From IMG/VR virus record IMGVR_UViG_2617271087_000004: DNA of 64,000 bases. One strand, 5' to 3'. Of this stretch, positions 31,250-32,125 are shown piece by piece (position 1 is the stretch's first letter; each line of letters starts with the position of its first letter). This DNA is from a virus (taxonomy: Duplodnaviria; Heunggongvirae; Uroviricota; Caudoviricetes). A program made the position numbers and the translations under genes. The notes beneath the pieces were generated by a model, which saw nothing but the letters and a program-made list of their open reading frames with translations, had not been told where the DNA came from and ran no database searches.

Positions 31250-32125
31250 CCGGTGTCCTTTGGCTGGTTATCCACCGTGGACGGGGAAACAAGGAGAAAT
31301 GAATGGACTGATATAACCATTTCCCCGCGTGCGCTTAGCCGCATTCACCGCAACGGAAAGAGCATTCTTGGTGGACCTGTAGATTGGGATATGAACCCGT
31401 TACAGGAGAATGCTCTTACCTGTTACGTGCTCCGTTTCGTGGAGCTAACGGCGGGTGATCGGGCCGCACCAAGCTGGACTTATTTCAGCGTTATGCTCAT
31501 GCCAGAGAATCAAACTGTGATGGTCGGTGCTGAACTCCGACACAGGGTTGTAGCAAGCCCCGCAAAGCGCGCACTACTGTAGTTGCGGCACATCAGCCTG
31601 TGCATTCACCACAATGTTGAGAACACTGGTTGTCACGCTGCAACGCAACATTTATTCGTAGATTGGGATATGACCCCGTTACGCCAGTGTTCTCAACGTT
31701 GTAGTGCCGGTTACGGTTCCGGCCAGGCCTCTTCCTCAACGGGGTGTTCTCCATACGGACTACCGTTTATTGGTCGTTCCTGCGGTTTATGTTGTGAAGC
31801 CAGATGCTTATCTTCTGGTTGCTTCAAAGAGCTGCACTTCATCACAACGGTAAGAGCACTCGATGCATTTAAGCCAAGCCCCATAAGGGAGAATGCCCTT
31901 ACCTGTTGTGTTGTGATGACCGGTGCTGATCTCCGGCTTGCGGTTATTTCAGACTCTCACGGGCGTTTAATTGCCCCGCCGAACAGCTCTTTTCCGCAAT
32001 AGCTGCAATGTCTTTCGCGCATCAGCCTGCGCATTCATCACAACGGTAAGGGTACTTCGTAGGGATTCGAACCCTCTGCCAAGCTCGGCGATCTCCGACG
32101 TCGCAAAATACCCTTACCTGTTGTG
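31250..32125. repeat. repeat-rich apparently non-coding region with a tRNA-like T-arm hairpin and long inverted repeats
   Basis: Repeats of gtagattgggatatgaMcccgttac (31380, 31658), catcagcctgYgcattcaYcacaa (31591, 32020), cccttacctgttgtg (31896, 32111, 32550); hairpin 32041-32125 encloses GGGTTCGAATCCC on the minus strand. Confidence 0.5.

Follow-up and report, generated by a model that had tools for sequence, protein, structure and literature searches.

A minus-strand array of structured RNA modules in the ban/tRNA operon of a P1-family phage-plasmid

The stretch analysed here, positions 31250-32125 of a 64,000-nucleotide viral DNA (IMG/VR record IMGVR_UViG_2617271087_000004; this whole DNA is called the window below), is best read as the untranslated middle of the C1-controlled ban/tRNA operon of a P1-family phage-plasmid, transcribed from the minus strand, in which the RNA and not a protein is what matters. 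The region encodes structured small or leader RNAs of the phage that are new members of an RNA family. Two types of module alternate along it, here named X (X-A to X-D) and H (the long hairpin units H1 to H4). The canonical form of X, with its invariant loops, represents a very widespread and mostly unannotated phage RNA family that is absent from Rfam. We lean, with slightly better than even confidence, towards the view that the stretch is a co-transcribed, nuclease-processed array of stable RNAs resembling STnc100 and PasD, and that the annotated open reading frames (ORFs) upl and plp are by-products of it; that the region is something more distinctive is a tentative idea.

X modules form a covarying RNA family

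X is organized around a closing stem of 7-12 bp (labelled P1; it is called the closing stem throughout, P1 being kept for the phage). The 5' strand of this stem is followed by an AAU linker, a 5-bp hairpin 1 whose invariant loop is GGCUGA, a variable domain that is 10-160 nt long (median 73), an A-A/U-G element and hairpin 2, GCCGG[AGAUCAGCA]CCGGC, which abuts the 3' strand of the closing stem. X loci were collected by two scans of IMG/VR, one anchored on the 5' motif and one on the 3' hairpin, each giving at least 120 loci. Among 100 distinct copies, all from the 3'-anchored set, positions 1-7 of the closing stem are paired in 89-95%; its 5' strand occurs as 47 different 8-mers, with three to five pair types at each position, and 713 of the 800 closing-stem cells are paired, compared with 488 +/- 12 when partners are shuffled. 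The stem of hairpin 1 shows GC/AU/GU swaps among the copies. When 26 diverse X copies were aligned with MAFFT (alignment A1), all nine pairs of the closing stem were found to change on both sides, and the covariation score of this stem was 0.344 versus 0.088; none of 500 shuffles scored as high and slid registers reached at most 0.11. G-U combinations exceed A-C combinations in hairpin 1 (16 vs 7) and at the closing pair of hairpin 2 (10 vs 0). Invariant loops on covarying stems are typical of a folded functional RNA.

A covariance model, R1, was built from 26 X sequences of unrelated viral contigs, none of which is P1-like or carries the GUUGUG stem of enterobacterial copies. Over the 64 kb of the window only X-A and X-C were significant, both at full length and on the minus strand. 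X-A (31910..32044, minus strand) scored 76.8 bits (E = 1.1e-19), whereas the plus strand gave 3.4 bits. It has the closing stem GUUGUGAUG/CAUCACAAC, hairpin 1 at 32017-32032 with the loop GGCUGA, and hairpin 2 at 31920-31936 with the loop AGAUCAGCA, and its minimum-energy fold recovers all three elements. Copies 97-98% identical to X-A are found in lambdoid/Stx2 phages and in Klebsiella phage IME207. X-C (31514..31615, minus strand) scored 63.8 bits (E = 7e-16); its closing stem is AUUGUGGUG/CAUCACAGU, hairpin 1 (GCACA[GGCUGA]UGUGC) lies at 31588-31603 and hairpin 2 at 31524-31540 with the loop AGUUCAGCA, and the architecture again appears in the minimum-energy fold. The suggestion of the initial annotation that the region might hold an undescribed structured RNA is thereby strongly supported, the stretch containing full-length members of a covarying family that Rfam lacks.

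The other two copies are partial members of the family. X-B (31791..31848, minus strand) is a miniature, degenerate X closed by GUUGUGAUGAAG/CUUCACAAC and carrying the hairpin-2-like element CCAGA[AGAUAAGCA]UCUGG, which a structural scan found; R1 gives X-B only 11 bits. The same module is present in the P22-like phage SPN9CC, just upstream of an N-like gene and with a compensated closing stem (GAUGCGAUG/CAUCGCAUC), and in phage Sasha. X-D (31232..31353, minus strand), found with the Rfam STnc100 model and R1, is a STnc100-like variant with the closing stem UGCGGUG/CACCGCA and the last hairpin CCGGG[AGGCA]CCCGG. Its R1 score is 23.9 bits (E = 3e-6, filters off) and its fold z-score is -2.6. 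Over model positions 31-147 the STnc100 model scores it at 37.8 bits (E = 6e-6), short of the gathering score of 47. The closing stems of X-A, X-C and X-D are 7-9 bp long. A terminator after X-D was considered and rejected: no compact hairpin adjoins the U-run at about 31224-31229, P1 lacks this run, and the terminator scan did not call it.

STnc100 and PasD are reported to be Hfq-associated prophage small RNAs, located in untranslated gaps of phage operons. STnc100 (RF02076) is the only curated relative of the X family. Like X, it has a closing stem, the sequence GGUGAAU leading into a first hairpin, and a last hairpin, CCGGGAGGCACCCGG, that abuts the closing stem. It differs in that X-A, X-B and X-C are unmatched by its model at E<=10, and canonical X ranges far beyond the Enterobacteria, unlike STnc100. 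The X modules of the window are moreover internal to a tRNA operon instead of being stand-alone, terminated genes.

X-D is homologous to the spacer between dicF and dicB in Qin of E. coli K-12. This spacer (13955-14082 of locus L343) is itself an X-D/STnc100-like module, unannotated in the K-12 record, with an R1 score of 24.5 bits (E = 1.8e-4) and a sub-threshold STnc100 score of 34.4 bits. The dicB operon thus resembles the window in having an X-D-type module, there between dicF and dicB, and the ban leader for its part starts with what the P1 annotation calls a dicF-like region; it differs in having one module rather than four modules plus tRNAs. DicF is reportedly made by RNase III- and RNase E-dependent processing. 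DicF itself (RF00039) was rejected as a candidate for the window, its model giving no match in 29800-33200 at E<=10 and 76.7 bits on K-12 Qin as a positive control.

Pieces of the stretch were found in 114 phage records. The 5' motif of X occurs in at least 245 records of cultured phages, including those of Klebsiella (72), Escherichia (54) and Pseudomonas (49), with further hosts among Burkholderia, Erwinia, Aeromonas, Stenotrophomonas, Xanthomonas and Ralstonia; where it lies, these records give either no annotation or a hypothetical protein, never an RNA. The exact 20-mer GAATGCGCAGGCTGATGCGC is present in at least 120 bacterial contigs of Gamma-, Beta- and Alphaproteobacteria. Rfam was searched with the region 29800-33200 (E<=10), three lambdoid/Klebsiella loci, 15 divergent X-bearing contigs, lambda 43800-45400 and Qin. 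The matches were only tRNAs, DicF (in Qin), isrK/C4 (elsewhere) and sub-threshold STnc100, and at the gathering threshold the 15 X-bearing contigs gave tRNAs only. Canonical X with its invariant loops is not in Rfam 15, and no description of the motif was found in the searchable literature, subscription journals being outside that search.

X lies in untranslated gaps, in the sense direction. Such gaps include those of tRNA clusters. In N-less lambdoid and Stx2 phages X occupies the leader that runs from the repressor gene to the first early-left gene, and some of these copies directly follow a promoter-like, operator-flanked site and precede a terminator. Further sites are the late leader of HK629 and gaps between structural genes. 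Where a tRNA was found within 1.5 kb of the X motif (33 of 132 instances), it was always co-oriented with it. The orientations of the flanking genes of 65 copies were ++ 30, -+ 14, -- 11 and +- 10, counts that come from a crude and noisy ORF and terminator finder.

In the lambdoid phages with a shared X-A, Rfam also matched isrK (67 bits) and, in locus L005 only, a C4-antisense-like RNA (44.2 bits); these matches, at 4980-5137 of L005 and 5035-5111 of locus L006, adjoin an antirepressor-like gene. Klebsiella phage K751, a large lytic member of the Ackermannviridae (locus L008, about 1700-1760), shares the H-X unit. It shares a second piece of the ban leader too (GCGACTTTGCGG..TTTAGAAACTGACCA..AAATGCAAACGAT, about 32690-32740 of the window), in the same order and near tRNA-like sequences.

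Hairpin units and their overlap with the X modules

The H modules are hairpins of 20-24 bp with conserved arms (CACAACAGGUAAG... / ...CUUACCGUUGUG) and unrelated cargo between them. The arms resemble CACAACAGGUAAGRGC / GCYCUUACCGUUGUG and keep a bulged A. The cargo, about 45-65 nt long, is hypervariable between otherwise near-identical flanks and is freely exchanged between phages. All folds were more stable than any of 200 shuffles, with z-scores from -5.6 to -7.7. H1 (31348..31427, minus strand; -34.7 kcal/mol, z -6.75) carries a T-arm-like cargo sequence of 13 nt, GGGUUCAUAUCCC, which is absent from the Ro157c2YLVW copy. H2 (31609..31706, minus strand; -49.0 kcal/mol, z -7.7) has arms that differ from those of H3 and H4 at several paired positions with complementarity kept. 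H3 (31843..31910, minus strand; -33.6 kcal/mol, z -5.8) is missing, together with X-A, from P1 proper through a 196-bp indel between repeat arms. H4 (32039..32125, minus strand; -41.4 kcal/mol, z -5.6, compared with -34.0 kcal/mol on the plus strand) has a 24-bp stem enclosing a small hairpin and a canonical T-arm, AGGGUUCGAAUCCCU. A fifth copy of the unit, H5 (32483..32566, minus strand; -39.6 kcal/mol), lies upstream of tRNA-Asn, beyond the range first annotated, and its arms fit the unit consensus; on the slightly different span 32476-32572 its fold energy is -48.8 kcal/mol for the minus strand, as against -33.6 kcal/mol for the plus strand. All five units are more stable on the minus strand (for another pair, -36.2 vs -25.6 kcal/mol), an advantage that comes from G-U pairs, which would be C-A mismatches on the plus strand.

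These units account for the repeats by which the stretch was first described. Each of those repeats is present: the direct repeat GTAGATTGGGATATGAMCCCGTTAC at 31379-31403 and 31658-31682 (96% identity), the direct repeat GCRCATCAGCCTGYGCATTCAYCACAA at 31588 and 32017, and an inverted pair at 31607-31629 and 31684-31706 with 23-nt arms that are 91% complementary, which is H2. The motif CCCTTACCTGTTGTG has exactly three copies in 64 kb (31896, 32111 and 32550), compared with a chance expectation of 0.01 copies, and three copies were seen in none of 100 shuffles. The copy at 32111 ends at 32125, adjoining the 3' end of tRNA-Thr as had been noticed, and pairs with 32041-32056 to close a 92-nt hairpin with the T-arm GGGTTCGAATCCC inside. 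This hairpin contains no full cloverleaf, ARAGORN and the Rfam tRNA model calling no tRNA in it. The repeats are thus real, but instead of standing as isolated pairs they form the arms and tails of four hairpin units (five with H5) that alternate with the X modules, and a simple local duplication does not explain the stretch.

Small hairpins precede two of the units. G2 (31706..31723, minus strand; GCCGGAACCGUAACCGGC) stands before H2 and G1 (31429..31445, minus strand; GCUCCACGAAACGGAGC) before H1, both read from the sequence. Hairpins related to G2 precede H units in many viral contigs, and a hairpin identical to G1 does so in several IMG/VR contigs. They appear to belong to a third small conserved module 5' of H, consisting of (U)GACAG and, after it, a hairpin whose purine loop contains GGA (for example GCCGGAAAGACGGC), which was seen at many IMG/VR loci as well as at 31706-31723 and 31429-31445. 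In some loci it overlaps a TTGACA-like hexamer, and its role could be that of a promoter element or of a protein-binding hairpin.

A separate observation concerns the sequence CACAACA in the 5' arms of H and the 3' strands of X (for example CAUCACAACACAACA, 31908-31922, minus strand), which equals the published R1 target consensus of GcvB, used by the phage anti-sRNA AgvB. The 3' arm CUUACCGUUGUGAUG of H resembles the GcvB seed region. The idea of a GcvB sponge or mimic was set aside, as CACAACA is of low complexity and is replaced by other sequences in divergent family members.

H and X are coupled. The 3' arm of H ends within the 5' strand of the closing stem of the next X, and its 5' arm repeats the sequence of the 3' strand of that stem, so that H and the closing stem compete for the same nucleotides in a three-strand overlap. 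The overlap recurs in divergent relatives with different sequences, as CCAUCAUAAAAUAGCC/GGUUAUUUUAUGAUGG at locus L171 and at four further loci (L159, L170, L186 and L192). Given this recurrence with different, compensated sequences, we regard the overlap as part of the design and not as accidental. Many X copies lack H, which is optional.

The H stems suggest a route by which the array could be processed. The stems of H1 to H5, at 20-24 bp, reach the at least 20 bp of mostly uninterrupted double-stranded RNA (about two helical turns) taken as the criterion for RNase III. They share their length, a conserved bulge or mismatch and a position between functional RNAs of one transcript with the classical RNase III processing hairpins (the lambda late leader, the lambda N leader and T7 early RNA) and with rRNA stalks. 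To our knowledge, a long hypervariable cargo and an overlap with the closing stem of the next module have not been described for classical RNase III sites. A homologous unit with consensus arms lies in lambda at 44788-44862, directly after tR'. Next to it comes an X-like module with the closing stem GUUGUGCUG/CAGCACAAC; Rfam gave no match on this segment. The proposal made on first annotation that the region holds processing signals is therefore plausible for the stems, given their length, their z-scores and the lambda homologue, although cleavage itself is a prediction.

Two further observations were made in lambda. The H unit and the X-like module together span 44788-44941 (989-1142 of locus L341), and the annotated orf-64 overlaps tR' and the start of H. 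The cargo of the lambda unit, AATTAAGCGAATACCGGAAGCAGAACCGGATCACC..., is the same as that inside an H-type stem of D6 and P7 (about 1520-1630 of locus L004).

In the processed-array reading, RNase P and RNase E would first cut the operon transcript at the tRNAs, and RNase III would then cut the long H stems. This second step is proposed from the stem length, from the lambda homologue after tR' and from the title of a paper that reportedly deals with RNase III processing sites in lambda late RNA. Cleavage would free the GUUGUG strand and allow each X to close its closing stem, and the X RNAs would persist as stable small RNAs with protected ends, of the STnc100/PasD type, their variable domains holding phage-specific regulatory sequence.

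A bolder proposal, which we advance only tentatively, is that X constitutes a phage RNA class spread across the Pseudomonadota, with a tRNA-shaped fold and kissing loops, that docks on a universally conserved host machine (RNA polymerase, RNase P/E or the ribosome, for example); H would be a processing-controlled switch that times the folding of X. The two invariant loops of X are complementary (GCUGA/UCAGC), and loop-loop kissing could give X a tRNA-like L-shape. A loop-agnostic scan of the X copies found no alternative covarying loop pairs.

Several observations weigh against these interpretations. The five proposed loop-loop pairs are invariant in all 26 sequences and so carry no covariation support, and the fold z-scores of X are modest (-1.8, -0.65 and -2.6). 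A terminator-like site lies within 250 nt downstream in only 16 of 65 X copies, which means that many copies are not simple stand-alone small-RNA genes. In SJ46, recombination joined the 5' arm of H2 to the 3' arm of H1 with loss of the stem, showing that modules are individually dispensable. The function of STnc100 and PasD is itself unknown. The one P1vir transcriptome paper found does not mention the region, and our literature search found no published P1 RNA data for the array. Finally, the plus-strand frame over 31253-32002 has 3 stops compared with 11-14 in the other five frames, and the codon score of upl (+0.12) is borderline, falling between the maximum of spurious ORFs (0.098) and the minimum of real genes (0.161).

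Rival readings of the array

The main rival to the processed-array reading is that X is a cis-acting processivity element, an antitermination or anti-Rho RNA in a put-like role whose nascent fold binds a conserved host component, for example RNA polymerase. Such an element would let the polymerase cross long untranslated leaders containing terminators, such as the ban leader, which runs untranslated for about 1.75 kb between Pban and the first ORF. The put RNA of HK022, about 70 nt long and made of two adjacent stem-loops, binds the zinc-binding domain of the RNA polymerase beta' subunit and suppresses termination. Some X copies are similarly placed, being structured RNAs encoded in cis between an early promoter and a terminator of N-less lambdoid phages; at four such loci X stands right after the promoter-like, operator-flanked site and immediately before the terminator. 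The position of X-B just upstream of the N-like gene of SPN9CC, the X copy in the late-operon leader of HK629 and the strong terminator-like hairpin of the ban leader at 32753-32772 agree with this idea. So does the 20-nt hairpin-1 segment, which is identical across Gamma-, Beta- and Alphaproteobacteria and would fit a universally conserved partner. However, the architecture is unlike that of put, which has two stem-loops and a triple helix, no closing stem and no sequence resemblance to X, whereas X has a closing stem and two separated hairpins; X was accordingly rejected as a put-type RNA. The strongest terminator-like site of the leader in P1 precedes every X copy, X is also found after Q-modified promoters where further antitermination seems unneeded, a terminator is near only a minority of copies, and STnc100 and PasD accumulate as free small RNAs. 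We regard an antitermination role as doubtful.

That the units are decayed tRNA genes, as had been suggested, or tRNA mimics that enzymes recognising tRNAs (RNase P, modification enzymes or anticodon nucleases, for instance) would take as decoys or substrates, we consider unlikely. The canonical T-arm of H4 (also labelled U4) adjoins the stem's 3' strand, the place it has in a tRNA, and about 10% of the H cargoes of other phages (IMG/VR loci) carry a T-arm-like GGUUCGAnUCC next to the 3' arm. The modules are also interleaved with real tRNAs, at one locus tRNA-Ser takes the place of H, and the topology of X is cloverleaf-like. Against this, ARAGORN and the Rfam tRNA model call no tRNA in any unit and find only the three known ones. 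When the cargoes were compared by BLAST with 133 phage tRNAs, the only match was that of the H4 T-arm to a phage tRNA-Asn, over 16 nt and without a D or anticodon arm. Most cargoes have no tRNA-like feature, 75% of the X copies have no tRNA within 1.5 kb, and closing stems of 7-12 bp do not fit the fixed 12-bp acceptor-T ruler. Decay of tRNA genes is hence unsupported as a general explanation, the tRNA-like piece being confined to the H4 cargo and the other cargoes unrelated.

In other systems, tRNA-processing enzymes release non-tRNA RNAs that are co-transcribed with tRNAs, examples being the rtT repeats in the tyrT operon of E. coli and the stable species 1 and 2 RNAs of the T4 tRNA cluster, and the array resembles these as a repeated or stable non-tRNA RNA among tRNAs. 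In the searched region, 29800-33200, the Rfam RtT model had no match at E<=10. The bacterial Y RNA YrlA combines a long terminal stem with a tRNA-like domain that includes a T-arm; GOLLD and ROOL are large phage RNAs often found beside tRNAs. YrlA resembles H4 in its terminal stem and T-arm; it was rejected because its only match (25.6 bits, gathering score 69) falls on real tRNAs, and we know of no Ro (rsr) gene in P1. Rfam gave no GOLLD or ROOL match in the same region, whose modules are much smaller, and no meaningful match that would make any of them a tmRNA or an AgvB.

It is quite improbable that the repeats act as DNA, whether as recombination hot spots, as a selfish element like a miniature inverted-repeat transposable element or as single-strand priming hairpins, with the RNA folds incidental. 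Cargo exchange and the gain or loss of units do occur exactly at the repeat arms (the 196-bp indel of P1, the SJ46 hybrid, and P7, in which H3 replaces H4), pieces 97-98% identical are common to unrelated phage families, and H often begins right after the T-run of a terminator. The scores are nevertheless strongly strand-specific, G-U exceeds A-C in the hairpins, and the orientation always follows transcription. The invariant loops on covarying stems likewise speak for RNA, a genome holds just one to four copies, and the repeats showed no target-site duplications.

The remaining question is that of the two annotated ORFs. The initial annotation had found no convincing gene in the stretch, a reasonable judgement, and had noticed that the plus-strand frame over 31253-32002 is open except for one TAG, with in-frame repeats (VDWDMNPL / VDWDMTPL). 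It missed that this frame corresponds to upl and plp as annotated in phage P1. The name upl had been given instead to an ORF at 30962-31198 (minus strand) that encodes an unrelated 78-aa membrane protein. In the P1 and RCS47 records, upl is the plus-strand ORF 31391..31582, antisense to H1, G1 and X-C. The ORF plp is 31583..32002 on the plus strand, begins with TTG and is antisense to X-C, H2, X-B, H3 and X-A. Both are annotations that probably do not correspond to genes; they are probably antisense by-products of the repeat array, and thus annotation artefacts.

Comparison across the P1 family, which had been proposed as a check, showed upl and plp to be broken, deleted or reshaped in Ro157c2YLVW, SJ46, P1, P7 and D6. 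A 13-nt deletion takes out the upl start codon in Ro157c2YLVW, and recombination between the cargo repeats of H2 and H1 deletes the whole upl ORF in SJ46. P1 lacks the 196 bp comprising H3 and X-A, a length that is not a multiple of three, so that the C-terminal part of Plp differs and the ORF runs into trnT. The annotators of P7 called neither ORF, nor did the Prokaryotic Genome Annotation Pipeline: of the 224 E. coli records with 80% or more of 31780-32130 covered, each row listed has tRNA-Thr as the sole annotated feature there. NCBIfam has no match for either ORF; PHROG has none for Plp and, for Upl, only families of near-identical copies. No Shine-Dalgarno sequence precedes either start, and the codon score of plp (-0.098) equals the mean of spurious nested ORFs (-0.099). 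The spacings of the repeats, 261, 279 and 429 nt, keep several copies in frame with each other, and the open frame is partly self-propagating for that reason. A reading of upl and plp as genuine plus-strand genes with in-frame duplications inside them, for which the scarcity of stops, the upl codon score, the in-frame repeats, the P1 and RCS47 annotation and the PHROG families of Upl could be cited, is the least probable of those considered, being set against the damage to the ORFs in relatives, the missing start signals and protein families, and the presence of the same DNA modules in other phages without any common ORF.

Operon context and implications

Over the array region the locus is 99.7-99.8% identical to phages RCS47 and vB_EcoM-813R1. 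On the minus strand, dmt (34974-32956) is followed by the C1-controlled ban promoter region with the dicF-like piece, both placed by homology to the P1 annotation, and then by tRNA-Asn, tRNA-Thr and the array. The ORF of the 78-aa membrane protein, a 275-aa SPFH/HflK-like lipoprotein, tRNA-Met(CAT), which is tRNA-Ile in the P1 annotation, and ban follow 3' of the array. The tRNA-Asn gene (GTT; 32205..32280, minus strand) and the tRNA-Thr gene (TGT; 32127..32202, minus strand), with H4 directly 3' of the latter, were called by ARAGORN and score 74.5 and 72.9 bits, respectively, with the Rfam tRNA model.

The leader contains further hairpins. A strong terminator-like hairpin of the intrinsic type, TGCCCATCTTCGGGTGGGCG followed by seven T, lies at 32753-32772 (minus strand; within 32735-32836), about 200 nt 3' of the ban promoter region and inside the dicF-like region annotated in P1. 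The dicF-like piece of P1 resembles a hairpin upstream of dicF in K-12 Qin (about 13810-13850 of locus L343). Immediately 5' of tRNA-Asn, at 32284-32305 (minus strand), is a hairpin resembling hairpin 2 of X, GCCGG[AGACGUAC]CCGGC, for which no matching closing stem or hairpin 1 was found.

The operon varies among relatives. The tciA-tciB-tciC genes of P1, P7, D6 and SJ46 are replaced here by the 78-aa membrane protein and the 275-aa lipoprotein, a cassette swap at 30154-31198 (minus strand) between the RNA array and tRNA-Met(CAT). The set of tRNAs differs among six P1-like relatives, with tRNA-Tyr(GTA) between Asn and Thr in some and tRNA-Arg(TCT) in place of Asn in others. In D6-type phages tRNA-Ser(TGA) stands directly 3' of an X module, and the same tRNA-Ser 3' end sequence is present without annotation in P7. 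Database records of the tRNAs are uneven as well: for tRNA-Thr, tRNA-Asn and tRNA-Ser the D6 record gives the other strand than ARAGORN does, and the SJ46 record annotates no tRNAs and draws hypothetical ORFs over them.

P1 is a reference phage, from which the annotation of upl and plp has spread to relatives and into databases of protein families. If these ORFs are antisense artefacts of an RNA array, noncoding RNA features should replace them. The array also links several RNA elements, namely the STnc100 and PasD small RNAs, the spacer after DicF, the unexplained lambda leader after tR' and the non-tRNA sequence of phage tRNA clusters, and P1, lambda and K-12 are tractable systems for direct tests of its function. 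Should X RNAs indeed dock on a conserved host machine, then P1, the lambda late leader and the dicF-dicB spacer of K-12 would share a regulatory RNA device that has been missed for decades.

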